Source: Saccostrea cucullata
Taxonomy: Eukaryota
Assembly (NCBI RefSeq): GCF_032062105.1
Contig: NW_026929843.1
Coordinates: 38,440-102,439 of the forward strand
DNA length: 64,000 nucleotides
Direction of reading: 5' to 3'
Shown here: in pieces, positions 17,943 through 45,724 of the stretch
Position numbering within the stretch: the first letter of the stretch is position 1
Layout of the letters: every line of letters starts with the position of its first letter
Notes under the pieces: model-generated
The model's input: the letters and a program-made list of their open reading frames with translations, nothing else
Database searches by the model: none
What the model was told of the DNA's origin: nothing
Position numbers and translations under genes: made by a program

Positions 17943-18183
17943 GTCAGTTATAAACTGAAGATGCTCTAGGAATTCAAAATTATCATAAGTGATTATCTTA
18001 TGTTACATTTACCAAGTTTTTAGGAATTACTCATCTGCATAATTTTCTGTAGTAGGGAAAATAGGTCTTGGTATATTTTTTCGATGATGTTGAATTGAAA
18101 TACCAGTATATTTATTTTTAGACAAATCAATCTAATTTATGAATAATTAAGGTTCCTAAGAGATATTTCTATGTATTTTACAG

Positions 18184-18324
18184 AAATATGACAAGAAGAC
18201 ACAAATAACCCAGTTCTGTGTGCTGGAGATTCATGTATCAAAAAGAGTTATTCCCCTTGACAACAAGGAACAGTCTCCTAGGTTTTGTATCTGTTCTCAC
18301 CAGGGCAGTGTGCAGGAAGTACAG
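18184..18324 (+). CDS. PARP4: PARP4-like exon 4
   Basis: Acceptor ttttacag, donor gtgtgt. Phase 0. 'KYDKKTQITQFCVLEIHVSKRVIPLDNKEQSPRFCICSHQGSVQEVQ'. Confidence 0.55.
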
Positions 18325-18722
18325 GTGTGTAGTACCAACATATGAAACAAATATAGGATTGTCAGTGGTTTATTGTTCGATATAATTTTTATCCAATGAG
18401 TTCTGTGTTTTCTTTTTATTCACAAGCCTTAAACATGTTAAGGTGCATAAAGATTCCTTTTATCACATGCTTTAAAACATAGGCACATAGCTATTAAAAG
18501 TTTTATGAATCTTTTTTATTTTTTCTAAATTTCATAAGAAACCCTTTTGGGACGTTCACATCTCGAAAAAGAAATGTCATGTGTAACTGAAATTTAATGT
18601 ATAAAAGGAGTAAACATGATAATTGAGCTTAATAAATGTACTTAAGCTTCTAACATTTTAATACATTTTGAATTTTGGAGACCGGGATACAATCACAGAT
18701 TATTTTTTGCTTAATTTTCCAG

Positions 18723-18887
18723 GACAAGCCAGGTAGTGGCACTAGAGAGTTCCGATTTGTACAGACGTCAGAGGAAGCCCTGAGTGTGTTTAGCGCCCTC
18801 TATAAACAGATGACAGAGTCCCCAAATAGCATGACTGTCTGTCGGAAACCCCCATGTCAGCATATCGGATCAAAGAAATTTCAAAAG
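18723..18887 (+). CDS. PARP4: PARP4-like exon 5
   Basis: Acceptor aattttccag, donor gtatat. Phase 0. 'DKPGSGTREFRFVQTSEEALSVFSALYKQMTESPNSMTVCRKPPCQHIGSKKFQK'. Confidence 0.55.
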
Positions 18888-19164
18888 GTATATCATTCTT
18901 CAGAATGATATAGAGATGGACTAGAGCCATTGATACTGTATGCAATGTATCTTTTAACTTTATATATCCTACTGGAAATCATATAATCATACCGTGTTTC
19001 AAAATTATGAAATACAGTTGACTTTATATGTAGCTGTGAATATATCAATCAAGTAATTTTTACTTTCAGAATATTTTTATTCAGAGTGCAATTATGGTAC
19101 AGAGTTTAAAAATATGATGTGATAAATTGAATCTTTGAATTAATATTTTTCTTATAACATTCAG

Positions 19165-19302
19165 ATGATGGTTGAGTATGGTATGGAGGATACAGAGTTA
19201 TCTACCCCTGTGAAGGAGCTGATGCATCACATCTGGCAGGAAGCCGGGGGCGAGATAGAGGAAATCCTTAGTAGTCCACTACAATCACTAAAACTAGACC
19301 AG
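19165..19302 (+). CDS. PARP4: PARP4-like exon 6 (PARP regulatory region)
   Basis: Acceptor aacattcag, donor gtcagt. Phase 0. 'MMVEYGMEDTELSTPVKELMHHIWQEAGGEIEEILSSPLQSLKLDQ'. The 3' end of this exon seeds the downstream minisatellite. Confidence 0.6.
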
Positions 19303-19870
19303 GTCAGTAGGTCAAGGTCATAACAGACCAGGTCAGTAGGTCAATACAGTCACTGAAACTAGACCAGGTCAGAAGTTCAAGGTCATAACAGACCAGGTCA
19401 GTAGGTCAATACAGTCACTGAAACTAGACCAGGTCAGTAGGTCACTACAGTCACTGAAACTAGACCAGGTCAGTAGGTCACTACAATCACTGAAACTAGA
19501 CCAGGTCAGTAGGTCACTACAATCACTGTCAGTAGGTCACTACAATCACTGAAACTAGACCAGGTCAGTAGGTCACTACAATCACTGAAACTAGACCAGG
19601 TCAGTAGGTCACTACAATCACTGAAACTAGACCAGGTCAGTAGGTCACTACAATCACTGAAACTAGACCAGGTCAGTAGGTCAAGGTCAATCAACTCACT
19701 GAAACTAGACCAGGTCAGTAGGTCACTACAGTCACTGAAACTAGACCAGGTCAGTAGGTCACTACAGTCACTGAAACTAGACCAGGTCAGTAGGTCACTA
19801 CAGTCACTGAAACTAGACCAGGTCAGTAGGCTACTTCAATCACTGAAACTGGACCAGGTCAGTAGGTCAA
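19285..19870. repeat. 36-bp minisatellite ('cactgaaactagaccaggtcagtaggtcactacaat'), derived from the exon 6/intron junction
   Basis: The array starts inside the exon 6 3' end ('ccactacaatcactaaaactagaccag|gtcagtagg'). Each unit repeats the 'accag|gtcagt' donor context. It continues at 20670-20840 beyond the MITE. Confidence 0.85.
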
Positions 19871-19877
19871 GGTCATT

Positions 19878-20669
19878 ACTAGGGGTGGATATCGCCAGAA
19901 AAACTATATTGCGATATATTGCAATATTTGATGGCATATTGCGATGAATATTGCAATATATTGCTTTGCTGTCCATTTCATGTAAAGTTTGAAGTGAACC
20001 GAAAAATAGTGTATCTATAAACTTAAAATACCATATCTGATCATTTCACGTCAGATAATGTTTGCTGTTCACTGTTTATTTAGTTCCCTGTCAAAGTGTC
20101 TTAGTTATTTGTGTAAGAAATCGACATATTTTTCGAGTAAAATTAAGACAGTCGACATGTTCTCCTTTTCTTAAAAAAATAACTTCGTAAAAATTCAGAA
20201 ACTGTTGTTTTATGTCATATCTCAACTTTTCTTTTCTTTTTTTTTTAAACGTGGTATGTGTCCTCAGACATAGGAATCAGAATATTTAAGCATCACAAAC
20301 CTACACTGGCTAAACATCGTTTATAACATTTTTTTCGTCCGCCATTTTGATCAAGAAAAGTACGAAACCAGAGTATAAGTTTTCTGGAAAAAATTAAGTG
20401 TTGTTGAATTGAATCTTCAACATAATCCTTGTGATGATTGTAATAATTAATCCTTTTAATTCCATGCTTACCTTTTACACACTGTTGCAATGTCTATTTA
20501 CTAACAAAAACAAACTTTACAACTGCAAATACACCATATTTAGCATTTGTGTAATACTTCCGGTTTGCATATCGTCAATACCGGTATTGAAAAAATATAT
20601 TGCAATATATTATCGTTGGGTTTAATATTGCAATATACCGATATATCGATAATATTGCACACCCCTAGT
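19878..20669. mobile_element. MITE/non-autonomous DNA transposon with TIRs '(t)actaggggtg ... cacccctagt', inserted into the minisatellite
   Basis: Terminal inverted repeats at both ends. The interior is full of 'atattgcaata' palindromic motifs. Flanking 'tcatta' on both sides is a candidate target-site duplication. The minisatellite resumes right after it. Confidence 0.7.
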
Positions 20670-20840
20670 CATTACAGACCAGGTCATTGGGTCACTACAG
20701 TCACGGATACAATACCAGGTCAGTATGTCAAGGTCATTAGAGACCAGATCAGTAGGTTAGTTATGTCACTGAAACTGAACAAGGTCAATGTAATTACAGA
20801 TCAGGTAAGTAGGTCACTACAGTCACTGAAACAGATCTTT
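20670..20840. repeat. continuation of the 36-bp minisatellite downstream of the MITE insertion
   Basis: Degenerate units 'gaccaggtcattgggtcactacagtcac...'. Confidence 0.7.
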
Positions 20841-21083
20841 ATGTGAGGTCACTATAAATATATCATTAGCTTCATATAGTTAGTGAAATTGTGACAATAG
20901 ATTCATTTGTTATTTAAAAGTCTGTAGTTGAGCAACAACTAGTCAAATTTCATATGTAAAAGCAGCAGATTATCATCATTAATTTAATCTGTCATCCATA
21001 TTTCTAACTTGACAATGCAAGATTAACTTTTCTAGAAAACTCCTCAAACCATTTAAATGCTAGATTAATCACTTCCATTTTAG

Positions 21084-21251
21084 GTTGAGAAGGCGACGGC
21101 CATTTTGTCTGAGATGAAGGAGAACCAATCAGATGAGAGTAAGCTACAGAGTCTGTTTACCGAGTTCTACTCCACGCTCCCCCACAATCCCCAGCACAAG
21201 ACCACGACCTTCACCTTGTCATGGCTGGCCAGGAAACTGGACCTTTGTCAG
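21084..21251 (+). CDS. PARP4: PARP4-like exon 7 (PARP regulatory/helical region)
   Basis: Acceptor ccattttag, donor gtacaa. Phase 0. 'VEKATAILSEMKENQSDESKLQSLFTEFYSTLPHNPQHKTTTFTLSWLARKLDLCQ'. Confidence 0.6.
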
Positions 21252-21597
21252 GTACAATGTGTTATTGAATTAGTTGCATGTCCTTGATATGGAATTTCTT
21301 TGTGCTAGGAGACTAGGATCTGTATTCTGACATGGAAATCAACAATGCTTTATTTACATGACTGTACTACATGTACTATGTAAGAAAAAGACAATCATTT
21401 ATGCATTACTTGAAGTGTCTTTGACTGATAAAAAAAAAATTGTTAAAAAAATTAATTTTCATAATGTTCAATGTACATGTCGATTTTCTTGAAGCCGACA
21501 CATGTTATGTAAGAACAGTACCTGAAAATGTCTATTAAAATAACAGGCTAATATTATATTGAGACAGTCTTGAGATGATGTGGTTTTTGTGTTGTAG

Positions 21598-21746
21598 CTG
21601 ATTAAGGACGTGGTGTCCGTGAGTGAAGCTACAGACTGGTCTACAAGGGGGAACACGGAGGCCCAGTACAAAGCCCTCAGATGTCAGATATCTCACGTTC
21701 CCGGGGGTCTACCAACACCAGTCAAAAACGTTCTCAATCTTAAGGA
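21598..21746 (+). CDS. PARP4: PARP4-like exon 8
   Basis: Acceptor gtgttgtag, donor gtaagt. Phase 0 in, 2 out. 'LIKDVVSVSEATDWSTRGNTEAQYKALRCQISHVPGGLPTPVKNVLNLK'. Its 3' part is the source of the 31-bp minisatellite immediately downstream. Confidence 0.6.
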
Positions 21747-21747
21747 G

Positions 21748-22178
21748 TAAGTACAAACCTGTATAGTAGTCAGATATCACAAGTACAAAACCCTCATATG
21801 TCAGATATCACAAGTACAAAATCCTCAGATGTCAGATATCACAAGTACAAAACCCTCAGATGTCAGATATCACAAGTACAAAACCCTCAGATGTCAGATA
21901 TCACAAGTACAAAACCCTCAGATGTCAGATATCACAAGTACAAAACCCTCAGATGTCAGATATCACAAGTACAAAACCCTCAGATGTCAGATATCACAAG
22001 TACAAAACCCTTAGATGTCAGATATCACAAGTACAAAACCCTCAGATGTCAGATATCACAATTACAAAACCCTCAGATGTCATATCACAAGTACAAAACC
22101 CTTAGATGTCAGATAACACACACATCCCTGGGGGTCTTCCAACACTGGTCAAAAACATCCTCAATCAAAGTAGTATAA
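21748..22178. repeat. 31-bp minisatellite ('cagatatcacaagtacaaaaccctcagatgt', about 12 units) derived from exon 8, ending with a duplicated pseudo-exon fragment (22100-22178)
   Basis: The unit resembles exon 8 'aaagccctcagatgtcagatatctcac'. After the array, 'cagataacacacacatccctgggggtcttccaacactggtcaaaaacatcctcaatcaaag' copies the exon 8 3' end 'cagatatctcacgttcccgggggtctaccaacaccagtcaaaaacgttctcaatcttaag'. Confidence 0.8.
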
Positions 22179-22485
22179 GTATGTTCAAACTTGTAATTAT
22201 AGTAGTCAGACAAGATAATCTCTTGAGTCTGTTAGTGTTAAAGACAGTCAAAGATTATCATATTAAAAATTAATATTAGAGTAAAGTGGTGGGAAGTGGT
22301 AAAATCTCATAATTGGTGATTAGTTTCTTGTAACATTATTGCTTATCTTACTGGGTAAGTGTGGATTCTGAAAGGCCTGAATGTTGAGTTAAAGCCAAAA
22401 TGTTATCCAACCTAGATGGCAGCTAATTTATTGTAAATGTCACAGCTTCATATTTTGTGTACCTATTGCTTACTGTTTGTTTCAG

Positions 22486-22620
22486 TGAAGATAAGTTAAA
22501 TGTACAGAATGTTTATGCCGTTCATCGTCCTGGTGAGAGTGAGGTGTTCCGGGCAGACTTAAATTCTAGACTTCTCTTTCATGCATCCAATGTGGAAAAC
22601 TTTGTAGGAATTCTCTCCAG
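22486..22620 (+). CDS. PARP4: PARP4-like exon 9 (start of PARP catalytic domain)
   Basis: Acceptor ttgtttcag, donor gtaatg. 'DEDKLNVQNVYAVHRPGESEVFRADLNSRLLFHASNVENFVGILS' shows the PARP pattern (cf. PARP1 'LLWHGSRTTNFAGILSQGL'). Confidence 0.8.
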
Positions 22621-22830
22621 GTAATGAATGCTAGACATTACCTTTGATGCCAGTTGAAGCATATTCATTTATGTAATGTTCATGTGTAACAGCATTGAAA
22701 ACTAGATATGGGATAAAGTGAGCTTGCCTGCTATTGATAAATTTATTCTTGACTAGATCATTTTTTGCTTTATTAACAATTTAAACTTACAAGCACCCAG
22801 TATTGACTCTCTTGATTGGATATTTATCAG

Positions 22831-22929
22831 AGGTCTCCTGATGCCAAAGGTCGTCGTCGATGACTACGGAGGGAAGAGAACAGACCCGGGAATGCTGGGA
22901 AATGGAATCTATTTCGCCAGTTCTGCTAG
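22831..22929 (+). CDS. PARP4: PARP4-like exon 10 (PARP catalytic core)
   Basis: Acceptor tatttatcag, donor gtttgt. 'RGLLMPKVVVDDYGGKRTDPGMLGNGIYFASSA' matches the PARP 'GKGIYFA' nicotinamide-pocket motif. Confidence 0.85.
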
Positions 22930-23343
22930 GTTTGTTTATAGTAATGACAATGTAAGATTTATTTAAAAACAGAAAATTTTACTTGAAGTGATGTATTTCA
23001 ATCAAATGCCAGTGTCAGGATGTATATAAAATATTTCGAACAATCTCATATTGCAAATTTATTATATTTAATGAATGATAAGTACTGTACCCACACTATT
23101 GCTTTGGACAACCACAAAATCAAGAAATAAGGGAGGATAAAGGGAATTCTAAAATATTCTTACATTCATTTGAAAGTTATTAAATCATTATTTTCTTCTC
23201 ATGTTTAAAGGATAGTTAGCTTAATTGCCATCCAGTCTTTTGAAAGATGAACTTTAATTGTCACAGTAGGAATATAGAACATAAATAATTAATGTCTTAA
23301 TTAAAAAGCAAATTCATGATTTATGTTTTCATTCTTTGTCCAG

Positions 23344-23527
23344 CACAAGCATAAAATACTCAAAGCCAAGTAAAACAAGGAATACAAGAATGATGTTGGT
23401 AAACCTGGTGGCTCTGGGGAATACCCTGGATGTCTATAAATATCAGCGGGACCTCACAGAGCCCCCTAGTGGCTACAACAGTGTTCATGGAGTGGCGGCG
23501 ACGGAGGACTTAGAATCAGATTTTACG
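23344..23527 (+). CDS. PARP4: PARP4-like exon 11 (PARP catalytic)
   Basis: Acceptor ctttgtccag, donor gtgtgt. 'STSIKYSKPSKTRNTRMMLVNLVALGNTLDVYKYQRDLTEPPSGYNSVHGVAATEDLESDFT'. Confidence 0.75.
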
Positions 23528-23984
23528 GTGTGTTAATGAAGTGATGAGGTTTCCTCCCCAGTTACATGTTATAGAAATGATAAGGATTTTCTTGTGACTG
23601 AAGTAATTTTAATATATTTTTGAAATAGAGTGATGGACATTTTTAAGGCAAATTGTCATATGTAAAACAAGTACTAGTGTTATATAATGGTGTAACCCCC
23701 CCCCCCCAAAAAAAAAAAAAGAGTGTCCCCACAAACACCCCCTCTCTTCAGCCTTCATACCCCCCACCTATTCTTTCTAGAATCATTTATTTTCAAAATA
23801 AAATTTGAAAAAAAATAAATTGCCACCCATGCAGTAACAGTTTGATGTTTGAATTGTACAAGTCAGTATTAAGATGACTTCAGCATAAATGTGCATACCA
23901 GTGTTACACTAGAGTGAATATCTTTGCCTGCTTAACTTTGATACCTTGTTCCTCTTGTGTACATTTTCTCCATTTTTGTGACAG

Positions 23985-24126
23985 GATGATGAGTATGTGG
24001 TGTACAGTACAGACCAGCAGATGTTGAGTTATCTGGTGGAGTTTACCGTGGGAGGGGAGATACCAGGGGAGTTATCAATGGAGGAGGAGATAGAAAGGGA
24101 GACAACTGACTCAGATACAGATGTCG
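23985..24126 (+). CDS. PARP4: PARP4-like exon 12 (end of PARP catalytic domain plus acidic linker)
   Basis: Acceptor tttgtgacag, donor gttagt. 'DDEYVVYSTDQQMLSYLVEFTVGGEI...' matches the PARP C-terminal 'NEYIVYD..Q..L.YLL' signature. Confidence 0.8.
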
Positions 24127-24348
24127 GTTAGTTCAGTGTTTGATCTTTTGTTATACAATATGTCAGGTACCCTATAATTTTATTACATAATTTTGCTAAA
24201 TATACATGTACAATTCAATATAGTTTGATAAAATTTTAAAATTGTTTCTAAAGGATTAGTAAAAAGTGTTTATTGTGCCCTCTGACATTCATAAAAATCT
24301 CTTCATGATGAAAGTGAATACATATACAATAATTTGTTCATTTTTCAG

Positions 24349-24479
24349 ATATCAGTGATGTGAAAAATGTGACTGACCCTCTGACCAAGGTCAAGGTTGG
24401 ACTGGTTTCCAATGATGACACGCCTGTGTCCCTCATAGAAGCCCACATCAGAGCCAAACTGATTGACCTGGCAGGAGAG
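24349..24479 (+). CDS. PARP4: PARP4-like exon 13 (start of VIT region)
   Basis: Acceptor catttttcag, donor gtaatg. Phase 1 in, 0 out. 'DISDVKNVTDPLTKVKVGLVSNDDTPVSLIEAHIRAKLIDLAGE'. Confidence 0.65.
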
Positions 24480-24822
24480 GTAATGTAGGCCAAAGTGAAT
24501 TAGTCAAACGTGAACGTCCTTTCTTATTATTAAGTTCCTATTATGTTTTATCAGATAAGAGATTACTTTGCAGTTCTTTATTTTACATTTTATAGATACT
24601 CAATATACAAAGATACTCAGATTCAAATATGACTCCATTTATAAACATGAATTTAGTATTGTATATAACCTTGTTTGTGTCAGTTTACGCTTTATAATCT
24701 GCGAAGCTTTTTAGATATTACATGTAACTGATCAGAGGCTAGAATACGTCAAACAAAGTGAAATTATTAGATTAATATTTGCAAGTTTGTTTAATACCTA
24801 TTCTTCTGTATGAAAACAACAG

Positions 24823-25047
24823 GTAGTGGTTCTACAAGAGTACCATAACAGTAGTGACAAAGCTCTGGAAGCAAAGTACGTCTTCCCTCTGGATGACATG
24901 GCCGCCGTCTGCGGATTCGAGGCTTTCATTAACGGTAAACACATCATAGGGGAGGTGAAGGAGAAAGAGACCGCCCACAAAGAATACAAACAGGCCATCA
25001 AAGAGGGGCACGGGGCGTATCTAATGGACCAAGATGAGGAAACGCCA
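24823..25047 (+). CDS. PARP4: PARP4-like exon 14 (VIT domain)
   Basis: Acceptor gaaaacaacag, donor gtaagt. 'VVVLQEYHNSSDKALEAKYVFPLDDMAAVCGFEAFINGKHIIGEVKEKETAHKEYKQAIKEGHGAYLMDQDEETP' is a typical VIT pattern (Y.FPL...A.V..F...I.G..I.G.VKEK..A...Y..A...G..A.L). Confidence 0.85.
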
Positions 25048-25429
25048 GTAAGTCAGAAATCATGGGGGAAAATCATGAATTCAAATTCCTTGGGCTTTTT
25101 GTCACTGTTGTGGGTGAAAAGCAAACAATTACTAGGTACATGCATTGTCAGTGAGTTTTATTTGTTCTCTATATTCCAATGAACAGAGAACCTTTAATTA
25201 ACAAGGATTAATAATAAGATTTTAATTTCATAAGATTTGTGTCTTTATATGTCTCATAATGATTTTATATTGATCATGAGCATTTGTTATCATGCATTTT
25301 TTTGAATTATGAATATACCAGGTATATTCCGTTAAGTTTTTCGTTGAAGTAATATGATAACCTGTACATAGTTTAATTGTTGGAGTAATATGGGAGCTTA
25401 ATGTATCCGCTTCTTTGGTCTATTTATAG

Positions 25430-25600
25430 GAGGTATTCACAGTGAGTGTGGGAAACCTCCCCCCTAAGGCTACCGTCATCATTAAGATAACCTACGTCAC
25501 AGAGCTGCAGGTCGACGGGGAACTCATCAACTTCCGACTCCCAGGCAGCGTGGCGCCATGGAAACAGAAGTATGTCGACGCCCCAGAATTCAAAGACAAG
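25430..25600 (+). CDS. PARP4: PARP4-like exon 15 (VIT domain)
   Basis: Acceptor ctatttatag, donor gtttgt. 'EVFTVSVGNLPPKATVIIKITYVTELQVDGELINFRLPGSVAPWKQKYVDAPEFKDK'. Confidence 0.8.
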
Positions 25601-25910
25601 GTTTGTGCATTTTAAAGGAAAAGGAATGAATACCTGCAGTTTTTTGTAGATTAATTTATTAAATTCATTGAAAAACATTGAATCAGAATTGTGCTTTTGT
25701 ATGAGAACAGATGATAATACTAAGGAAGTCAAACTATAGACTGAAATGTTATTGAGTATTTTTTCAGAAAGTTTGGTTTTTATTTTGTCATGTTGATATA
25801 ACTTGTTCCTTTTTCATGTGCGTGGTAAATCATACTTCATTGTTTAATTGATACACAGTGCTAAATGATATGAGGAATGATTATATTTGATGTCTGATTT
25901 TCCTCCTCAG

Positions 25911-26021
25911 GACTGGGATACAGTACAGGTTGAGGACACAGACTGCAGTGTACAGGTTTATGTTGACATGCCTTTTGACATCAGAAGTCTGGAATGTCCT
26001 ACTCACAAAATTCTTGTAAAG
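25911..26021 (+). CDS. PARP4: PARP4-like exon 16
   Basis: Acceptor ttcctcctcag, donor gtaaaa. 'DWDTVQVEDTDCSVQVYVDMPFDIRSLECPTHKILVK'. Confidence 0.65.
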
Positions 26022-26330
26022 GTAAAACCCTCACACTACACTTGTCTGGTGAATTTTAATGAAAAGTACAATGTACTATTGCATTAGACCTATGGCATTT
26101 TATTATTTTCACATCTCCAGAAAAATAATAGTGAAAGTGATAAAACATTTCTTTTTTAATGGTTAATATTATGAAACAGTGTTATATCAAAATGATAATA
26201 TGGTGATGGCACCTTAAAAATTATACCTTCTGTTGTTAGTGCAATGAGTACAACCTCAGGAGGATAAATAAAAAGTACAATAAATAAATACACCAGAGGG
26301 TGAGTACATTAAGGGTGTTGTATTCTGTAG

Positions 26331-26465
26331 AGAACGGCCACTAAAGCCACGGTCGAGATGAAGGAGGACCAGACAATAGAAGATGGCTTCCAGCTTCTGA
26401 TTGGTCTAGCTGAGATCCACGTACCCAGGATGTGGGTGGAATCCGACGAAGGCCAAGATTCACAG
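26331..26465 (+). CDS. PARP4: PARP4-like exon 17
   Basis: Acceptor gtattctgtag, donor gtattc. 'RTATKATVEMKEDQTIEDGFQLLIGLAEIHVPRMWVESDEGQDSQ'. Confidence 0.65.
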
Positions 26466-26910
26466 GTATTCTATTAAAGTTGTGTATCATTTTACCTTGG
26501 GCGTATTATTTCATTTGAAAGATAATAAGCTTGATAAATGGTTAAATGCATTAAGTACAACTGCAAGTAAAAGGGATTTAATGAAACTTACCCTTTGAAA
26601 TTGATCATATTTATTTGATTAAGAGGATAATGATGATTTATTGTAATGTTTTTTAAAAAGCTTAAATTAGATAGAAGACATATGCGTTGCATTAGTGTCA
26701 ACTTCCTTTTTCAGCAAAGCATATATTAACTTGAAATACATGTATGGTACAATTCTGCAGAAAGTCTAAGATAAATGCATTTTGGTTTATTTGAATTGAA
26801 TTTTTAATGACACCGAGGCTAGTCTCACAAAATTTTTACTGAGTTTTAATATTCTGTAAGTTAATCACCATTAGATTAATCATTGATATGTTTACTTTTT
26901 TAATTATCAG

Positions 26911-27097
26911 GCCTGTATGCTGACCTTTTACCCTGAGTTTGAGGCGGAGGAGGAGTCAGAGGTCGAGGTCATTCTGATGATTGACAGCTCCAACTCCATG
27001 AAAGGCTCCGCCCTCCAACAAGCCAAGAAAACGGCTCTCCTGACCCTACACCTCATGGAGTCCAGCTGGAGATTTAATGTGGTGTCTTTTGGAACAG
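26911..27097 (+). CDS. PARP4: PARP4-like exon 18 (start of VWA domain)
   Basis: Acceptor taattatcag, donor gtaaca. 'ACMLTFYPEFEAEEESEVEVILMIDSSNSMKGSALQQAKKTALLTLHLMESSWRFNVVSFGT' carries the VWA MIDAS-type 'DSSNSM' motif. Confidence 0.85.
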
Positions 27098-27254
27098 GTA
27101 ACATTTTGGGAAATGATTTTAGACAGAATAGAATTAATATAGTTATAAAAAAAAAACAGTAATAGCAATCCTACATACATTGTATAATGAGTATATGTAC
27201 TATGCTTACAGCAAAGTGATCTTTATTCCTTGAGATACATTGTATGCACACAAT

Positions 27255-27466
27255 TACTGTAGAAGTACTTTTTTCCGCGTGGTATTAATCTACGCAATGT
27301 ACTCGCTTACAATTTTTCCGCGGAAATTTGTCCAAGCGTACTTAATATAAATGTAAGGCACATATAGAGACAATCTAGAAAATCCGCGTAATTTTATACC
27401 TGCGGATTAAACAGAAATTGAGATTCCGCGGAATAATGACCACGTGGAAAAAGTACGTCTACAGTA
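27255..27466. mobile_element. MITE with about 28-bp TIRs ('tactgtagaagtactttttccgcgtggt ... accacgtggaaaaagtacgtctacagta')
   Basis: Near-perfect terminal inverted repeats. A related copy lies at 52368-52579 and a partial copy at 35040-35131. Confidence 0.8.
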
Positions 27467-27706
27467 TATTTTTGGGAGCAAGAAATTAATTAAGCTTTTA
27501 ACAAAATTAAAATTGTTTTTCTCAGGTAATTTGCATATAAATTTTTAGTACATGTAGCTAGCTGTTCATACTTTGCCTGTTGAAAGAATTAATTGGTATC
27601 TCCCTGATCTGTACATCTTATATTAACATAAAATATGCAGAAGTATTTTAATTCATTTTAAATTTAGAATTTAAGTCATCTTTCTGTTGAATTTTGTATG
27701 TTGCAG

Positions 27707-27780
27707 CTTTCCAAGAGCTTTTCCCGTCCAGCCAGCTGGCCAGTAAATTTAACATACAATCAGCAAAACAGTTCATACAG
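27707..27780 (+). CDS. PARP4: PARP4-like exon 19 (VWA), followed by a putative GC donor
   Basis: Acceptor atgttgcag. '(A)FQELFPSSQLASKFNIQSAKQFIQ'. Only 'gcaaga' follows at 27781. The next VWA exon is in the +1 frame, consistent with a 121-nt GC-AG intron. Confidence 0.55.
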
Positions 27781-27901
27781 GCAAGAAATAAAAATTTTAA
27801 AACACTTACCACTTTCAAATTGATCAGTGAAATTGAACAATACAGTTATGAAGTACTGCTTGTATTTGAATTTTTAATTTTTCTTTTGATTTCTCTCTCA
27901 G

Positions 27902-28089
27902 AGGCTGCAAGCAGAGGAAGGTAACACAGAACTTTGTCGACCTTTGAACTCTTACTACCTCCTAAAACCAGAGAGTTACACTAGGAATATCTTCCTGATC
28001 TCTGATGGCCATATTAACAATGAGGAGACAACTCTGTCCAAAATCTCCCAAAATTACCAGCACACCAGAGTCTTTACACTAGGGGTCAG
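27902..28089 (+). CDS. PARP4: PARP4-like exon 20 (VWA)
   Basis: Acceptor ttctctctcag, donor gtaatg. 'RLQAEEGNTELCRPLNSYYLLKPESYTRNIFLISDGHINNEETTLSKISQNYQHTRVFTLGV' has the VWA 'GgT.l..aL' and 'ifL.tDG' pattern. Confidence 0.8.
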
Positions 28090-28309
28090 GTAATGTCAGA
28101 AAATATTTCTATAGAATTTGTTTGAAAAAAAATATTAAACAGTGTACATGTACATATAGTAACATTGATTAGCAGGAGGTGGGGGGGGGGGAGTTCATTA
28201 TTTTAACATTTTTTGCATTAATTTTAATAGAATTTAATTTAATTCAGTTACTGTAACAGTTTTATATAAGCATATTAATAAGTTTATTTCTTTCATATCA
28301 TATTTACAG

Positions 28310-28409
28310 CTCTGTGGCCAATCGTCACCTACTGAAAGCTGTGGCCAGAGTAGGAGCAGGGTCATTTGAGTTTTACGACTCCAAATTCAAATCCAAGTGG
28401 GAGGAAAAG
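28310..28409 (+). CDS. PARP4: PARP4-like exon 21 (VWA end)
   Basis: Acceptor catatttacag, donor gtaaat. 'SSVANRHLLKAVARVGAGSFEFYDSKFKSKWEEK'. Confidence 0.7.
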
Positions 28410-28526
28410 GTAAATATTTTGTCTTCAAATTAAAAAAACAAATTAAGATAGCATAATGGCAGTTTTTTCCCCTCCATATTCCAATTCCCCCTCTCTGATT
28501 ATCAATCCAACATTTTCTATTTTAAG

Positions 28527-28694
28527 GTCAAGTCCCAGTTACAGAAAGCTGCCCAGCCAGTGCTGACCTCTGTATCTGTTGATTGGCGCCATGACGACCA
28601 GCACCCTGCTCCCATCCAAGCTCCGCAGCAAATAACCGCCCTGTTTAGTGGGTCCCGACAAGTCATTTATGGCTTTGTGGACAACTGTTACATG
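28527..28694 (+). CDS. PARP4: PARP4-like exon 22
   Basis: Acceptor ctattttaag, donor gtttgt. 'VKSQLQKAAQPVLTSVSVDWRHDDQHPAPIQAPQQITALFSGSRQVIYGFVDNCYM' is typical of the post-VWA region of ITIH/PARP4 proteins. Confidence 0.65.
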
Positions 28695-28845
28695 GTTTGT
28701 ATTGCATGTATTTTGTTCAAAAGAAATCCATAATTTTTTTGGGCCTTGAATTTGAGTTTTATAGTTAAAAAGTTAGAATAATTTAGTTCTGAATCAACAT
28801 TTTTGGTACTGATAATTTTTAAAGTTACAGGGACCATTATTTTTT

Positions 28846-29320
28846 AGCTCTACTGGTCAGAGACCAGAAGAGCTTATGCGATAGTAATGCGTCCGGCGTC
28901 TGTCTAGCTGTCCGTCTGTCTGTAAACAATTTTTCAAAATGCTACTCCTGCTACAGTTTTGGTCTAATTTCAATATAACTTGGCACACAAGTAGACTACA
29001 CTAAAATACATAATTCTGTGTATCGGTTTTTGATTTCGATGAACGGTGTTGCCGTGGTTACTAAAAATAGAAATTTCTGTGAAATTCTTTCAAAATGCTA
29101 CTCCTCTTACAGTTTTGGTCTGATTTCAATATAACTTGGCACACAAGTAGACTACACTCAGAACATAAAGAGACTTTATCAACGATCATTATTCTATTCA
29201 TTGCTGTTGTAAATTAAGTTTCAAATCCCAGCTGCTAAAGTACTTTTCTCTTCCTTTGCTATAAGTTCAAACCAGTAGAGCTTCAGTCTCGACAGAGACT
29301 TCTGGTTAGATTATGCACCA
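28846..29320. mobile_element. MITE with TIR 'agctctactggt ... accagtagagct', internal (gtct)n-rich segment and an internal about 125-bp tandem duplication
   Basis: The TIRs are seen directly. 28915-29040 is repeated at 29045-29165. The 'gtctgtctagctgtccgtctgtctgtaaac' segment is shared with the family at 40030, 56345, 62335 and 63160. Confidence 0.7.
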
Positions 29321-29411
29321 ATGAAAGAGAAGTGCTTTGTTTAGTGAATATATTTTGTGTTTTATTGGTATTTTAACTTAACTGAATGACAGTGTAAATT
29401 TACTATTTCAG

Positions 29412-29492
29412 GCAACTCTGAAAGCAGAGGTTGGAGGTCAAGAGATATCAACAGTTGTGTCGACCTCTGACCTTAGTGTCACAAAGGGCAAG
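29412..29492 (+). CDS. PARP4: PARP4-like exon 23
   Basis: Acceptor tactatttcag, donor gtcagt. 'ATLKAEVGGQEISTVVSTSDLSVTKGK'. Confidence 0.55.
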
Positions 29493-29706
29493 GTCAGTTT
29501 TACAACTCACAGATAAATACAGACAAAAATAAAATCCCCTTCAGGCTGATAGAATGTCAGGCTTTTGCAATAAATTACAACAATTCTTACCATCAAGATT
29601 TTATAAGACATCCTTTCTAATGATTTTTATTTTTCCTTTGAATTCAGCAGGGCTTTTGATGAACTGTTATATAGAATATTAGCCACTGATTCTGATTTAT
29701 TTTTAG

Positions 29707-29787
29707 ATGCTGCATAGGCTGACTGCCAAAGGGGTAATCAGAGATTGGGAAGATGGAGTTCTCTCCCCTGACAGAACAGGACATGAG
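29707..29787 (+). CDS. PARP4: PARP4-like exon 24
   Basis: Acceptor ttatttttag, donor gtaaaa. 'MLHRLTAKGVIRDWEDGVLSPDRTGHE'. Confidence 0.55.
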
Positions 29788-30029
29788 GTAAAATAAACAA
29801 AAATAGAATTTGATATATATTGCAATTGATGAATTATTTTCTTAGCCAAAGCATCTTAAAAAGTTAAAAACATTATTATACATATCTCTTTAATGCAAAA
29901 CTTTTGTATGTAGTAATATTTCCAAAGTACTGATTGTAGAAACATTTGTATTACAATTGACATGAATTTGATGGTAATTAATATACAAAATGTATTATTT
30001 ATACAGTATGTATTTTTTTTGAATTTCAG

Positions 30030-30131
30030 GTGAGGAAAATGAACCTGAAGCAGTATATTATAGAGCTGAGTAAGAAGTATACCATCGTCACGTCACTCAC
30101 CAGCTTTGTCGCCATCGAGAAACGAGAAAAG
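30030..30131 (+). CDS. PARP4: PARP4-like exon 25
   Basis: Acceptor gaatttcag, donor gtaatc. 'VRKMNLKQYIIELSKKYTIVTSLTSFVAIEKREK' matches the 'LS..y.ivT..TSfVAve' motif shared by VIT-VWA proteins. Confidence 0.7.
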
Positions 30132-30520
30132 GTAATCACCTCTGAAATCTAGTTATTAGTAACTTTTTTATCTAAATTTTCAATTTTCCATCTAAATTTT
30201 ATGGATCTCACGTCAAGAAAAACAACAGATTATGATAATCAAAATATTTTAAGATTATTGTACAACATTTCTTTGTTATGATTTTATAATCTGAAAGTCC
30301 TTTTGAGATTAACTTAAGTCTATACAATGTAATTAAAACTGAGAACATCAACATCTAAATGTAGGCACTTCCTTCTTAAAATATATATACTCCTTTGACT
30401 TTTAAATCTTTAAGTATCTAATATTTTAGCCATATACACGTACATGCATTATAGACACCATTTTGAAATTCACACTTCATGTTAATTTTTTAATGGACCC
30501 GTGGATTAATTAATTTGTAG

Positions 30521-30616
30521 GATGAGGTGATTCCAGAGGATGCTCCAGACGTCTGGGACCTCCTGGAAAACGAGGACGTGGATCAGCTGAAATATTTATC
30601 CTGGGAAGGAGAGGAG
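30521..30616 (+). CDS. PARP4: PARP4-like exon 26 (last exon with recognisable PARP4/ITIH-type sequence)
   Basis: Acceptor taatttgtag, donor gtacat. Phase 0. 'DEVIPEDAPDVWDLLENEDVDQLKYLSWEGEE'. Confidence 0.6.
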
Positions 30617-31057: not shown

Positions 31058-33730
31058 TTGAAATTGGTGGAAAATACCTTAAAATCCCGAGTATTGGGCG
31101 CACTTTTTTTCGTCAGAAAAATGTTCAAAAGTAGGGATGCACTCAATACATCGGAACAAAATTCATCCCCCTTTTTTTCAGGTCACTTTCTCAGTGCCGA
31201 GGACCATTTTCCTGATCCATTTGAATTGATTACCCTTTTGTAACCAATTACGTCAAAGTTAATCGAATTTTAGAGAGTTATATGCATAAGTCCTACCTGT
31301 TGTAGAAATATACATATACCCTAAGTATTGAAATAAAGAAAACCGTTTCAAAAATCAAATTCTGATGAAAAACGATCTTTGTTTATATTTTATTTCCATT
31401 GCATATTCCGCCATTTTGAACTACCGTCGCTTATATCATCAACGAACAGCATGTCGCTTAAGACATAGATGTATTTAATTAATACCTATAAATGAGTCAA
31501 AAATAGATTCCAAGTGCTAGAAGGATTAGAAAGTGTTGACGACATCTGGGAAAATATGATAAAAGGTTACAACGAGACAGCAGACAGCATACTTGGGGTA
31601 AAAGAAAAGGGACAAAAACCATGGATAAGCAGGGAGTCTTGGAAGGTAGTAGAAGAGAGGAAGCAGCTAAAACTCCAACTTACCAACAGCAGATCAGAAA
31701 GATTAAAAAGAAGTTTAAGAAATAAATATTCAGTTAAAGACAGAGAGGTAAAACGCAGTATGAGGAATAACAGGAGAAAGTGGACAGAAGACATGATTAC
31801 AGAAGCAGAAAGAGCAGCAAGTAATGGGCACATGAAAACAGTATACGAGATAACTAGAGTGTTAAGCAATGAAAAGAAAGGCATGACAACAGCAATAAAG
31901 GATAAAGAGGGGAAGATCCTGAGCAGTCAAGATGAAAGAAAGAAAAGGTGGAAAGAGCACTTTCAAGAAATATTAAACCGCCCGCAACCTGAACATCCAT
32001 TAGAAGTTGAAAGCGAAGATCAAGAATTAGATGAGATGGATACAAGTCCCATACGAAAAGAGGAAATAGTGAAGGCTATAAAGAACCTGAAGAATGGAAA
32101 GGCTGGAGGAGTAGATGGAATAACAGCTGAATTGTTAAAGGCAAACACAGAGACAACAGCAAGATATTTGGAAAAACTGTTTTCAACAATCTGGAGACAA
32201 GAAACCATACCATCAGTCTGGAGTAAAGGCCTGATAGTGAAGATCCCAAAGAAAGGTGATAGATCGGTATGTGATAATTATAGAGGAATAACACTTCTAT
32301 CTGTGCCAAGCAAAGTATTCTCCAGAATAGTAATACAGAGAATCCAAGATGGAGTTGAAAAACAGCTGCGTGAGGAACAAGCTGGCTTCAGAAGAGGGAG
32401 GAGTACAACTGAACAACTATTCACACTCCGAAACATCATAGAGCAATGCACCGAATGGAATTCAACATTGTTTATAAACTATGTTGACTTTGAAAAGGCA
32501 TTTGATTCCATTCACAGAGAGAGCCTTTGGTCCATCATGAAGTTCTATGGCATCCCAGACAAATTGGTCAGAATGGTGAAACTCCTATATGAATCATTCC
32601 AATGTGCAGTCCTTGAAGATGGAGAAGAAACGGACTGATTCTGGGTATCAACAGGAGTGAAACAGGGCTGCACAATGTCTGGATTCCTATTTCTGTTGGT
32701 CATAGATTACGTAATGAAAAGAACTACAGAAAGCGAGCCAACAGGAATAAGATGGAATTTCACAACAAAACTGGAAGACCTAGACTTCGCAGATGATCTT
32801 GCCTTACTTTCCTCCAAATTTCAAGACATCCAACAAAAGACACAAAGACTCAATGAAACTGCTAAGCAAGCTGGCCTCAGAATAAACACCGAGAAAACTA
32901 AAGTGATGAAGATCAACTCAGACATAAAAGAAGCAGTCAAGATTGATGGACAAGACCTAGAAGATGTAGAAAAATTTACTTACCTTGGAGGCGTAATAAC
33001 AACAAAGGGAGGTGCTGACGAGGACATTACCAACAGACTGGGAAAAGCTAAGTCCCAATTCGGAAGGCTCAGGAAAATCTGGAGCTCATCAAAGTTTTCC
33101 ATCCAAACAAAAGTAAAGCTATTTAACAGCCTAGTCCTGTCAGTTTTAATGTATGGAAGCGAAACATGGAAAACAACAGAGAGAGACAAAAAGAAAATTG
33201 ACACCTTCCAGAATAGATGCCTTAGAAAGATCTTGCGAGTAAGATGGCCCGAGAAAGTGTCTAATGAAGAACTCCATCAAAGAACAAAGACAGCTACAGC
33301 AAGTGAAATGATAACCCTCAGGAAGTGGAAGTGGATTGGCCATGTACTGAGGATGGATAACACCAGGATATGTACCACTGCACTGACATGGCATCCAGAA
33401 GGAAAGAGAAAAGTAGGCCGGTCAAAAACAACTTGGAGGAGGACCACGGAGCAAGAGACTGGGGAGGAAAAGCTGGGCGTCAGCGAGGGCAGCAGCAAAG
33501 ACAGAAACATTGGAGACTGTGTATTGGGGCCTTATGTGCCAGCGGGCACGAAGAGGACAGGTGAGGTGAGGTATAAATGAGTCAACAGCTATAATCTTTT
33601 TGATGTTTTTCTGATTTATTCTTATTTCTATAACTTATTTTTATGTTTTAAATTTAAGATATGTGATTTGAGTTACAAATTGTTAGGGATTGTATTGCTG
33701 CGTCATTGCTATATTTAACTTCAGTCTAAG
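31058..33730 (+). mobile_element. 5'-truncated, frameshifted RTE-like non-LTR retrotransposon (reverse-transcriptase ORFs 31514..32638 and 32657..33580) inside the intron
   Basis: RT motifs 'FRRGRSTTEQLFTLRNIIEQ', 'YVDFEKAFDSIHRESLW', 'GVKQGCTMSGFLF' and 'FADDLALLS'. There is no endonuclease domain upstream (5' truncation). The two RT halves are in different frames (frameshift near 32640). A short AT-rich 3' tail follows. Confidence 0.8.
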
Positions 33731-35151: not shown

Positions 35152-35205
35152 AGGATGAGAGTTCAAGTGATGAAGAAGAGATGGAAGAAGAATATTCGTC
35201 CGCCG
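35152..35205 (+). CDS. candidate exon of acidic C-terminal extension: 'DESSSDEEEMEEEYSSAE'
   Basis: Acceptor tttctatttag, donor gtaaaa. Phase 0 to 0, compatible with the phase-0 end of exon 26. Confidence 0.45.
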
Positions 35206-35654
35206 AGGTAAAATTCTTTTATTTTCATTAAAAACTAAAACTAAGTTAAACAATCAAGCATTTCTAACAATTTAGTCATAGTCAAGGAAAAGGTAAAGAT
35301 GAAATTATTTGAAGGGGGTTAAATATTCAGAAAAGTTTATTTTTGGTGGGCGAGGCATTTATTCCATGCCTGTATATTATATTTACCCCACCTCTGATAA
35401 TTTTTCCGTGAAATCCTGGCTTACGATTGGTTGAAGTATGTCACGTGAAGGCGGTGGATTTCTTATACCCGGTCAGTTGTAAATCCATACCCGGTCAGTT
35501 GTAATCTATACCCGGTCGATGTATTACGTCACAAACACAAACGTGACGTCATAGTAGGCATAGTATAAGCGTGATGAAGGATTTAGCAGAGAAAACCATT
35601 TATAAACTACAGATAAAATGTAAATGTTACATCGGTGGGGTAAATTCGTTACAC

Positions 35655-36700: not shown

Positions 36701-37001
36701 TTAGTCAGAAGTATCTCTGATTAAACATCAAAGCAGAATGAAGAATTTATATGCAGCATGCAAGTTCAGTAGTCCTTGAAAAGAAGTTGAAAGTGTGAAA
36801 AAGTATACAGATAACACATGACAGACAAACAGACAGGAAAACATACTATTAGGAAACTGAACAAAACAGCTCACTTATGAGCCTTAATTTATCTCAGTTG
36901 AGCAGATCAAAAGCCAAATCTTCAATTGTATAGAGCCTATTTGCAGCATGTACAGACATCATGAGGATTATATTGACTTTGACCTCTTGACCTCTTTACA
37001 G

Positions 37002-37100
37002 GAAGGATCGGGAACAGGAGAGGAAGAGGAAGAAGATTTCGAGGAAGAAGGAGTAAAAATGAAATTTTATCGTCGCAGTGCAGAGGAGGAGGTTTGTCCA
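37002..37100 (+). CDS. candidate exon of acidic extension: 'EGSGTGEEEEEDFEEEGVKMKFYRRSAEEEVCP'
   Basis: Acceptor cctctttacag, donor gtgagt. Phase 0 to 0. Confidence 0.45.
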
Positions 37101-37113
37101 GTGAGTTCTTATT

Positions 37114-37341
37114 ACTGTATAAGCAGAATTTTTAGCAAGGAGTTAATTTTGGCACTATTAGTGAGGGTGCCAAGAATGCTAATATTGAATATTGCTAAAT
37201 ATTAATTGCATTTTATTTGTAATAGCCTCTTTTGTGAGCATTTTAAAATCGCTAAAATTACTTATTGCTAAAAATAAAACAACCATTTTTAAGGACAAAT
37301 CGCTAAATTTGTGTCTCGCTAAAATTTCCACTGATACAGTA
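37114..37341. mobile_element. about 230-bp MITE ('actgtataagcagaatttttagcaagg ... ccactgatacagta') starting 13 nt after the donor of exon 37002-37100
   Basis: Same family at 44183-44408, 44728-44954 and, in reverse, at 52190-52367. Short inverted termini 'actgtat'. Confidence 0.7.
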
Positions 37342-43679: not shown

Positions 43680-43721
43680 GAAGAAGCTATGGACGTTGAT
43701 GAATTGTGTTTGGAGTCTGAG
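43680..43721 (+). CDS. candidate exon: 'EEAMDVDELCLESE'
   Basis: Acceptor ctcttcccag, donor gtatgt. Phase 0 to 0. Confidence 0.4.
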
Positions 43722-44182
43722 GTATGTTTTAATTACGATATATTTATTTAGTCCCATGATTACTACATGTAAGTGAGATTGAGAGTGTATAGAAACAAAA
43801 TTTGTTCAATCAATTGAAACCAAAGGAATACTTTGCAGTATATATAGCTAAGTACTGTAGTTAATACCTGACAGATATTTGTTGCTTAAAAATGACTGAA
43901 TTGCTACACAGTGAACATGCTGTAGGCCATATTTAAGGTGGACAAAGATTTGCTGAAAATATTATCATGCTTGTTTACGTAAGGGATAAATAAGGATGAA
44001 AAATAAATTTTTAAAAATAAATTTCTAAAGGTAAAACTGAAAATCAGATGGAATATTTGTTAACAATTGAAAAGAATAATTTCATTGAGTTGAATGATCA
44101 GCCTTTTTTTCAAAAGCTGATCATGATTGACAAGTTGACCTGTATAAAATCATATTTTACCTTTTTAATCAATAGACATAAA

Positions 44183-44408
44183 CCGTACAAGTGGAATTTT
44201 TAGTGATGATTTTATTTTGGCATTATTAGTGAGGGTGCTGTTGATCACTAAAATTAAATATCGCTAAAAATTGATTGCATTTTATATGCATTAGCTTCTT
44301 TCGTGAGTAATTTAAAATCACCAACATTACATCTCGCTAAAAATTGAATGCCACCATTTGAGAACAAATCGCTAATTTGCGTCTCACTAAAAATTCCACT
44401 TATACCAT
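44183..44408. mobile_element. MITE copy (37114 family), about 200 nt upstream of exon 44606
   Basis: 'ccgtacaagtggaatttttagtgatg...cactaaaaattccacttatacc'. Confidence 0.65.
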
Positions 44409-44605: not shown

Positions 44606-44704
44606 ATTGACGATATCCACTCTAAAATGAAAGAAAATGTAGAAAAAGTACTAGAGAGGGGTGAAAAACTAGACAATTTAACTGAGAAATCACAAACACT
44701 TATG
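44606..44704 (+). CDS. candidate exon with R-SNARE (synaptobrevin)-like heptad sequence: 'IDDIHSKMKENVEKVLERGEKLDNLTEKSQTLM'
   Basis: Acceptor aaatttcag, donor gttagt. Phase 0 to 0. Aligns with VAMP2 '[33 protein letters not shown]' (about 12/23 identical in the core). Confidence 0.5.
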
Positions 44705-44727
44705 GTTAGTTGATTGCCTGTTTTATA

Positions 44728-44954
44728 CCGTATAAGTAGAAATTTTAGCAAGGATTTTATTTTGGCATTATTAGCGAGGGTGCTGAGATCGCTAAAATTG
44801 AATGTCGCTAAAAATTAATTGCGTTTTATTTGTAATAGCTTCTTCAGTATGCAATTTAAAAACGCTAAAATAACATCTCGCTAAAAATAGATTACCAATT
44901 TTATAGGACAAATCGCTAAATTTGTGTCTCGCTAAAATTTCCACTTATACAGTA
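44728..44954. mobile_element. MITE copy (37114 family) starting 23 nt after the donor of exon 44606-44704
   Basis: 'ccgtataagtagaaattttagcaagg ... ccacttatacagta'. Confidence 0.7.
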
Positions 44955-45136: not shown

Positions 45137-45304
45137 GATGCCTCCCCTGTTATCATGGACATGGGTTCACTGTTTATGAAGGCGGGGTTTGCTGGGGACG
45201 ACGCCCCCGAGCAGAATTTGAGACAACCGTTGGACGTCCTCGACATCAGGGCGTGATGGTCGGCATGGGACAGAAAGACTTGTACGTCGGAAAAGAGGTC
45301 ACAG
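45137..45304 (+). pseudogene. actin N-terminal-like exon (actin exon-1 equivalent), frameshifted in a C5 run (45204-45208); possibly a real exon of the host gene
   Basis: Acceptor taataag, donor gttagg. Upstream frame '[24 protein letters not shown]'. Downstream frame '(R)[31 protein letters not shown]' matches actin '[38 protein letters not shown]'. Canonical actin has 6 C where 5 are present. With 6 C the exon would be phase 0 in and phase 1 out, matching both neighbouring exons. Confidence 0.5.
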
Positions 45305-45670: not shown

Positions 45671-45724
45671 GAGCAAAACCTGTGTTAGGAAAAGTATTGG
45701 AAAAGCTTTCTTCATCTTTGGAAG
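45671..45724 (+). CDS. candidate exon: '(G)AKPVLGKVLEKLSSSLE'
   Basis: Excellent acceptor ttttttatag and donor gtaaga. Phase 1 in, 1 out. Links the (corrected) actin-like exon to exon 47417. Confidence 0.45.

Follow-up and report, generated by a model that had tools for sequence, protein, structure and literature searches.

The PARP4 locus and its actin-derived exon

The stretch analysed here, a 64-kb window (64,000 nucleotides) of AT-rich metazoan DNA from Saccostrea cucullata (GC content ∼0.33) with retroelements and repeats resembling short interspersed elements (SINEs) or miniature inverted-repeat transposable elements (MITEs), carries on its + strand, at ∼16.5–53 kb, a gene for the vault PARP, PARP4, which encodes BRCT, PARP, VIT and VWA domains in that order. 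In the part of this gene that encodes the protein's tail, a segment at 45137–45304 on the same strand encodes a piece of actin, and this segment is almost certainly a genuine internal PARP4 coding exon of actin origin. The host gene to which the first-pass annotation, made from the sequence alone, referred is PARP4 and not a SNARE gene; the SNARE-like exon of this locus is, like the actin-derived one, a fragment taken from elsewhere.

Pfam searches with the + strand open reading frames (ORFs) of the window upstream of the segment gave matches to the PARP catalytic domain (E 3e-30), VIT (E 1e-37) and VWA (E 4e-18), and the Magallana gigas protein K1PUC2 (UniProt; 1559 aa) and the Mytilus edulis protein CAG2205451.1 (1730 aa) could be followed by tblastn exon by exon from 16569, with BRCT first. 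The core of the gene, consisting of the BRCT, PARP catalytic, VIT and VWA domains together with conserved post-VWA exons, extends over 16569–30616 (+) according to Pfam and to tblastn of three PARP4 proteins. The closest database protein is XP_062607148.1 ('protein mono-ADP-ribosyltransferase PARP4-like, partial [Saccostrea cucullata]'), which is collinear with 24348–52979 of the window (tblastn); the protein search returned only entries of up to ∼1000 aa, and a full-length Saccostrea PARP4 possibly lies outside its reach. Since identity between the window and this protein is 95–100% in the VIT/VWA exons and 45–94% in the tail exons, the window copy comes from a closely related Saccostrea, or else it is a divergent haplotype or paralogue.

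At 45137–45304, actin residues ∼4–57 are encoded in two frames, as had been described from the sequence, and the switch point is a homopolymer of exactly five C (C5) at 45204–45208, the run length originally reported. The entry frame provides 24 actin-like codons (45137–45208) and the frame one base back a further 33 (45205–45303); if C5 is real, translation of the assembled exon in the entry frame meets a premature TGA at 45254–45256, whereas the frame is intact at this site in relatives. Repaired by one additional C, the peptide matches Pfam Actin PF00022 at positions 4–53 of 410 with an E value of 3.6e-10, above the curated cutoff, and PDB actins at residues ∼4–60 (E ∼1e-18), with one stretch of 17 residues 100% identical to actin. 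The rest of actin was not detected elsewhere in the 64-kb window, including the 19 kb downstream, with a beta-actin probe. The M of the motif MDMGS is an internal residue and not a start codon; in-frame ATGs are found upstream of the exon at 45083 and 45113. In place of the nucleotide-binding loop DNGSG of actin, oysters have DMGSL and mussels DAGSL. Because this loop is changed and only ∼55 of 375 actin residues are present, the segment cannot form the actin fold with its four subdomains.

The acceptor of the exon is ...taataag/GAT and the donor CAG/gttagg. Both sites had been called good; the donor has a usable GT with G at position +5, but the T at +3 is non-consensus. With a sixth C the exon is 169 nt long, phase 0 in and phase 1 out, whereas the phases of the 168-nt version as assembled do not fit. 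The proposal that six C would match the phase-0 end of the exon at 44704 and the phase-1 acceptor at 45671 is borne out by XP_062607148.1, in which both junctions (44704>45137 and 45304>45671) are used with the frame intact, ...EKSQTLM/DASPVIMD...KEVTG/AKPV..., and the residues after the actin-derived exon junction begin AKPVVGRVLEKL. The exon itself corresponds to residues 718–774 of that protein.

The tail coding sequence (CDS) was rebuilt from ten exons, every one of which is bounded by AG and GT. Three short acidic exons, placed by mapping of XP_062607148.1 at ∼35154–35207, 36990–37100 and 43680–43721, precede the SNARE-like exon at 44606–44704 (99 nt, phase 0 to 0). The actin-derived exon is followed by a mini-exon encoding (G)AKPVLGKVLEKLSSSLE at 45671–45724 (54 nt, phase 1 to 1; residues 774–791 of XP_062607148.1), an acidic exon with P-stalk-like sequence, ESDEEDVDMGFSLFDDDDES, at 47417–47476, an exon encoding (F)ELPKKQAPPKE at 47599–47633, a proline-rich exon, FQKRGPTVRPP...SESDDEDYE, at 49386–49566, the fast-evolving exon KPDVLSVKPVYTRVSMAMAGGIE at 49708–49776, which was placed in rebuilding the tail CDS, the exon GELSKKEPSPIT at 51335–51369 and the last coding exon at 52885–52982, with the conserved C-terminus ...SRQLRELNYCAEWISNV and the stop codon; apart from that of the fast-evolving exon, these positions too follow from mapping of XP_062607148.1. 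All of these exons lie on the + strand. As assembled, the actin-derived exon introduces a premature stop into the rebuilt tail CDS, nor would the frame survive its omission, as the exon before it ends in phase 0 and the one after it begins in phase 1. With one extra C, a single frame passes through 44606–44704, 45137–45304 and 45671–45724, and remains open for ∼200 further codons over eight exons.

The actin-derived exon of bivalve PARP4 is already present in public annotations, as three independent annotations place it inside PARP4 CDS models, and the Pfam Actin match is found within the orthologous proteins, where the segment comprises residues 1253–1325 of M. gigas K1PUC2 and 1284–1355 of Mytilus edulis CAG2205451.1. 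These two proteins and S. cucullata XP_062607148.1 share the gene, the exon and the junctions with the window and have intact frames, whereas the window has two one-base deficits. A literature search found no published description of an exon-sized actin remnant in bivalve PARP4. Two database entries named as actins, 'actin, partial' from Mytilus galloprovincialis (OPL32772.1) and 'putative actin-29' from S. cucullata (P0382), each consist of part of the PARP4 tail; they owe their names to the actin-derived exon and are probably misannotated. Five other proteins with tandem or duplicated actin N-termini (P0241, P0242 and P0378–P0380) were set aside as ordinary or misassembled actins.

Conservation, origin and possible role of the exon

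Approximately 30 intact ORF variants of the exon were detected by protein search in Logan assemblies of many sequencing runs, 88–93% identical and all in a single frame, and more distant versions were found in ENA and JGI contigs. Intact orthologous exons occur in L001, L009, L010 and L011. In L001, a genomic contig of Crassostrea/Magallana type, the exon is 205 nt long, phase 0 in and 1 out, and shares 80% nucleotide identity with the window within the exon and no alignment outside it; a homologue of the 45671 exon, SKPIVGKVLKEQSE, is located ∼560 nt downstream. In L009, a more distant bivalve-like contig, post-VWA exons of PARP4 precede the actin-derived exon on the same strand and a homologue of the 45671 exon, GKPKVGKVMEEKLS, follows it, and the downstream KP.xGKV exon and upstream PARP4 exons are syntenic across relatives. 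The donor position, ...AC(A) G/gt, is common to L001, L009, L010 and the window; species agree in the splice-in phase, whereas conservation does not extend to the sequence 5′ of the acceptor. At the site of the C run, relatives read GCC CCT CGT (L001), ACC CCC AGG (L010) or GCA CCG TTT, and a run of six C would therefore be specific to Saccostrea.

Pairwise Nei–Gojobori comparisons gave pS values of 0.5–1.0 (saturated) against pN values of 0.05–0.2, with dN/dS of ∼0.05–0.09 where it could be calculated. A comparison of three Saccostrea versions with M. gigas leaves 49 of 51 exon positions unchanged, whereas the tail around them has accumulated many substitutions and indels. In a tail that evolves fast and is apparently disordered, the actin-derived exon thus forms a conserved island; it is under purifying selection and older than the oyster–mussel split. 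The segment had been interpreted as either a real exon with a homopolymer error or a recently decayed captured exon; the comparisons indicate a genuine coding exon under either reading, and a capture that was not recent and predates the divergence of oysters and mussels. The fallback that had been offered, an inert pseudogene fragment in the intron, is ruled out by purifying selection in oysters and mussels.

Homology in relatives reaches the acidic N-terminus of actin (DDDVAPVVMD in L009 and MIDEESAPIVID in L011), and the 3′ limit of the exon lies one base past the codon aligned with actin Q41. This end lies within one base of intron 41/42, a classical actin intron that is present in vertebrate and echinoderm actins. 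Together, the extent of homology at the N-terminus and the position of the 3′ end suggest that the piece corresponds to the entire first coding exon of actin. The genomic actin ORFs that were retrieved break off at or shortly past ...VGDEAQ, with the endings ...DE, ...DEAQS or ...DEAQSKRG. The match to a complete first coding exon in turn points to capture at the DNA level, as an exon, and not to retroposition. In this proposed course of events a complete first coding exon of actin, encoding the acidic N-terminus, the beta1–beta2 hairpin, and a strand with the DNase-I-binding loop (D-loop), would have been copied, splice sites included, into an intron in the tail-encoding part of PARP4 ahead of the split between oysters and mussels, and purifying selection would then have retained it as coding sequence. 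A processed actin retro-pseudogene was considered and rejected: such a copy would run without introns through several exons, usually with a poly-A remnant, whereas the segment comprises just the equivalent of exon 1, stops at a splice donor and has no further actin behind it.

Within the exon, an invariant core of 21 residues corresponds to the actin strand and D-loop. In filamentous actin the D-loop docks into a cleft of the neighbouring subunit, and in monomeric actin it binds DNase I. AlphaFold predicts no secondary structure for the S. cucullata tail protein, with a predicted local distance difference test (pLDDT) score of ∼52–56 (∼52 over the segment). The segment is most likely a putative linear interaction module that displays a look-alike of the actin D-loop and N-terminus. 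Such a module could tether PARP4 and vaults to the actin barbed-face cleft or to proteins that read the D-loop surface of actin. Some 55 actin residues including the D-loop have remained near-invariant for hundreds of millions of years within the tail of the vault PARP, and a recognizable motif in this tail provides concrete peptides for partner tests.

The missing C and competing explanations

The composite reading modestly favoured here is that of an ancient actin-derived PARP4 exon with a role as an interaction motif, in which the missing C leans towards a consensus or polishing indel error. For the missing C taken by itself, such an error is given a probability slightly above even. Apart from it the exon is undamaged, the tail keeps all of its splice sites and no stop interrupts the repaired frame. 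A second deficit is located in the last exon, where IKDSKDS (52885–52905) and the conserved frame GEQLL.../GEQLLDLQSRQLRELNYCAEWISNV, which runs from 52905 to the stop, share one G; relative to XP_062607148.1, the window has 'TCGGTGAA' where 'TCGGGTGAA' would be needed for a continuous frame. An internal acceptor at 52927/52928 could be joined in frame to ...SRQLRELNYCAEWISNV and its stop, bypassing this second deficit. In both cases one base is missing from a run of G or C. The contig, being long, gap-free and repeat-rich, is read as a long-read assembly; the PARP4 tail is highly polymorphic among Saccostrea versions, and short-read polishing tends to be poor in highly polymorphic regions of this kind. 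The positions 45204–45208 and ∼52905 are sites to check for consensus errors before this PARP4 is called disrupted.

Several observations weigh against this composite reading. Of the homopolymers of at least five nucleotides in the 4.6 kb of mapped CDS, 22 of 23 are fine, and the second deficit, from three G to two, is atypical as a homopolymer error. Both deficits fall within the last ∼0.75 kb of the CDS, with the second 3′ of the first premature stop, as true decay of the tail predicts. In S. cucullata there are at least two further divergent copies of the tail on separate contigs (P0121 and P0382), and, with several such copies, it is plausible that the tail is redundant or that a null allele segregates. 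Look-ups of exact ORFs, covering the C5-type ORFs of the window on both strands and a neighbouring ORF, returned no independent sequence from the same species, and locus look-ups had no genomic loci on record encoding XP_062607148.1 or 'putative actin-29'. Inclusion of the exon in mRNA, which appears probable, rests on three independent gene predictions (XP_062607148.1, K1PUC2 and CAG2205451.1) and on evolutionary constraint. As to function, the binding is putative, and the alignment supplied to AlphaFold was shallow (12 sequences). A protein search aimed at spliced M. gigas transcript ORFs returned none, its matches being dominated by ordinary actins, and self-comparison of near-identical repeats gave one indel outside homopolymers and 15 substitutions in 658 aligned nt, a sample too small for power.

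The main alternative is that the exon is genuine and C5 is real, such that a recent frameshift, carried by this haplotype, paralogue or species, cuts PARP4 short behind the SNARE-like exon and the tail downstream has begun to decay, an explanation to which we attach a substantial probability short of an even chance. The second one-base deficit downstream in the last exon is in keeping with it, as are the absence of any frame break in the ∼3.9 kb of upstream CDS, the unusual change of S/A to L at 'KDLY' in the window exon, and the existence of at least three divergent Saccostrea tail versions, which suggests paralogy or strong haplotype diversity; oysters in general bear a high load of segregating loss-of-function alleles. 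A decaying tail sits less easily with the canonical splice sites kept in all ten tail exons, with the ∼200 open codons, free of stops and of splice-site loss, that a one-base repair restores, and with the conserved frame and stop of the last exon, where 22 of 25 residues are preserved. The second deficit is moreover avoidable through the internal in-frame acceptor, and long-read consensus sequences classically err in just this way, by dropping one base from a run of G or C. A different way of accepting C5 as real is that it is bypassed, by programmed −1 ribosomal frameshifting, by transcriptional slippage on the C run or by a cryptic internal acceptor. In-frame internal AGs do exist at 45222/45223 and 45249/45250 among others, the first of which would retain a stretch of 19 residues and what lies beyond it, but polypyrimidine tracts are missing at these AGs, GCC CCC GAG lacks a slippery heptamer of the form X XXY YYZ, five C are too short for efficient transcriptional slippage, and the segment is in a single frame in all relatives, so bypass is regarded as very improbable.

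That the segment was never part of a host mRNA, being an inert intronic actin pseudogene fragment derived from a retrocopy or a decayed duplicate, would suit its frame, broken as assembled, its isolation in 64 kb with no other actin, and the SINE/MITE-like repeats directly upstream. The orthologous exon nevertheless occupies the same place among PARP4 exons in several genera, with dN/dS below 0.1 and conserved splice boundaries, three independent annotations include it in the PARP4 CDS, and its AG and GT bounds fall exactly at the limits of the actin exon, unlike those of a retrocopy; we consider this explanation to have hardly any chance of being correct. No more credit is due to the idea that a separate and divergent actin-like gene lies within the PARP4 locus and has the segment as its first coding exon, its later exons being too diverged or beyond the window, despite the two upstream in-frame ATGs and the NCBI names 'putative actin-29' (S. 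cucullata) and 'actin, partial' (Mytilus): the 19 kb downstream are devoid of actin-like sequence, the entries so named run on into PARP4-tail exons and not into actin, and it is the splice-in phase, and not the sequence before the acceptor, that is conserved.

Other borrowed pieces, known systems and repeats

The exon directly upstream of the actin-derived one, at 44606–44704 (+), encodes the N-terminal half of an R-SNARE motif, matching PF00957 at positions 9–47 of 89 (E 4e-10), and its closest solved match is VAMP4 (PDB 2nps, E 1.5e-6). It does not belong to a full SNARE, as a complete 53-residue motif and membrane anchor are lacking and the next exon is the actin-derived one. Pfam searches gave no SNARE match in the M. 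gigas (P0243) or Mytilus (P0245) PARP4 proteins, whereas one is present in the Saccostrea model, and this absence suggests that the SNARE-like exon was captured as well, and later than the actin-derived one. In L009 its place is taken at ∼8533–8779 (+) by a properly spliced exon encoding calmodulin residues ∼59–139 (PDB E ∼1e-38), which is followed by a Ser/Asp/Glu-rich ORF and then by the actin-derived exon at ∼10052–10303.

Further along the tail, exon 47417–47476 (ESDEEDVDMGFSLFDDDD) resembles the C-terminus of ribosomal P-stalk proteins (PF00428 positions 73–88 of 88, E 0.0034, below the cutoff), and equivalents of this motif are found in the M. gigas and Tegillarca proteins. A similar P-stalk-like piece, EFEEEEDLFFGCFGDEGP, with AG/GT-like borders is located at 51170–51227 (+) and is included in neither S. 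cucullata model; with a donor at GTGATG it would form a 39-nt phase 1-to-1 cassette. Borrowed sequences, fragments of further ultra-conserved proteins, also terminate VIT-VWA proteins in unrelated lineages: P0153 and P0159 of the rotifer Rotaria end in a near-canonical calmodulin fragment, an environmental protein from ENA (P0235) ends in ubiquitin, and P0260 of Anaeramoeba (KAJ6254333.1) carries most of an actin. M. gigas K1PUC2 terminates in an Hsp70 substrate-binding fragment that is missing from the window; this fragment may stem from a fusion of gene models and was not relied upon.

Among known systems, PARP4-like proteins from protists and from some deuterostomes have been described with actin-, 14-3-3- and ubiquitin-related domains at the C-terminus (Perina et al., 2014; PMC4245714). 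The clade-5 PARP4-like proteins of Salpingoeca, Capsaspora and Acanthamoeba, and Anaeramoeba KAJ6254333.1, likewise have actin-derived sequence C-terminally, and the bivalve case is placed in this known group of PARP4-like proteins, to which actin-derived sequence was added by exon shuffling. The protist clade-5 and Anaeramoeba proteins carry a whole or near-whole actin, whereas the bivalve gene has an exon-1 equivalent of ∼55 residues in a disordered tail. In the primate POTE-actin chimaeras, retrotransposition of a complete actin mRNA joined actin, in frame, to the 3′ portion of a host gene unrelated to it. POTE-actin thus derives from a retrocopy of a whole mRNA, whereas bivalve PARP4 contains a single intron-bounded exon hundreds of millions of years old.

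The region of mammalian PARP4 between the vWA and the MVP-binding domain is disordered and under strong positive selection, and has been proposed to be an interface with pathogens (Daugherty et al., 2014; PMC4038475). This region (human exon 30) occupies the same place as the bivalve tail, from the VWA to the C-terminus, and as in bivalves it is predicted to be disordered and diverges fast; in mammals, however, it is one large exon without recognizable homology, whereas the bivalve tail consists of many small exons, several of them derived from other genes, with a conserved island. Plant nucleotide-binding leucine-rich repeat receptors (NLRs) can contain integrated decoys, fragments of pathogen-targeted host proteins built into a defence-linked protein. 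The likeness is confined to the layout, as PARP4 is not an NLR and the parallel is purely hypothetical. The disordered C-terminal tails of PARP4 and related VIT-VWA proteins could be arrays of integrated baits, short copies of ultra-conserved host proteins that toxins of pathogens bind, cleave, modify or exploit as activating cofactors; through them the vault PARP would capture or sense effectors, an idea to which only a low probability is assigned. The candidates are the actin N-terminus and D-loop, the half R-SNARE, the calmodulin C-lobe (in the bivalve-like contig and rotifers), ubiquitin and the P-stalk-like DMGFSLFD, together with the domains recorded in protists and deuterostomes by Perina et al. 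(2014). SNAREs and the P-stalk tail are classic targets of toxins. Bacterial toxins are activated across kingdoms by actin, calmodulin, 14-3-3 and ubiquitin of the host, as tabulated by Anderson et al. (2015; PMC4512716, Table 1). The bait reading is suggestive because the appended modules coincide with activators or targets of bacterial toxins and the mammalian region is under positive selection, and the joint occurrence of actin-, SNARE-, calmodulin- and P-stalk-like pieces makes for an experimentally approachable hypothesis on the role of the PARP4 tail.

Repeats are numerous in the window. A short interspersed repeat rich in 'tcgctaaaa' is present at 37091–37341, 44179–44378 and 44704–44954 (+) and in inverted orientation at 52164–52308; one copy begins right where the SNARE-like exon ends at its donor, inside the intron that leads up to the actin-derived exon. 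In the intron that follows exon 21598–21747, ∼12 tandem units of 31 nt derived from the 3′ part of that exon (...YKALRCQISH) extend over 21676–22171 (+) and are followed by a degenerate copy of the end of the exon, a partial exon duplication with internal expansion. A remnant of a retrotransposon without long terminal repeats (non-LTR) lies on the same strand in a PARP4 tail intron at 31514–33580 (+), encoding RVT_1 and DUF6451, its ORF split in two by a stop. Upstream of PARP4, inverted repeats of ∼490 nt at 11608–12098 and 14772–15261, 97% complementary and 2.7 kb apart, resemble a foldback or terminal-inverted-repeat type element with no obvious transposase ORF. Minisatellites are found at 19270–19947 (36-nt units, in a PARP4 intron) and at 5843–6205 (33-nt units).

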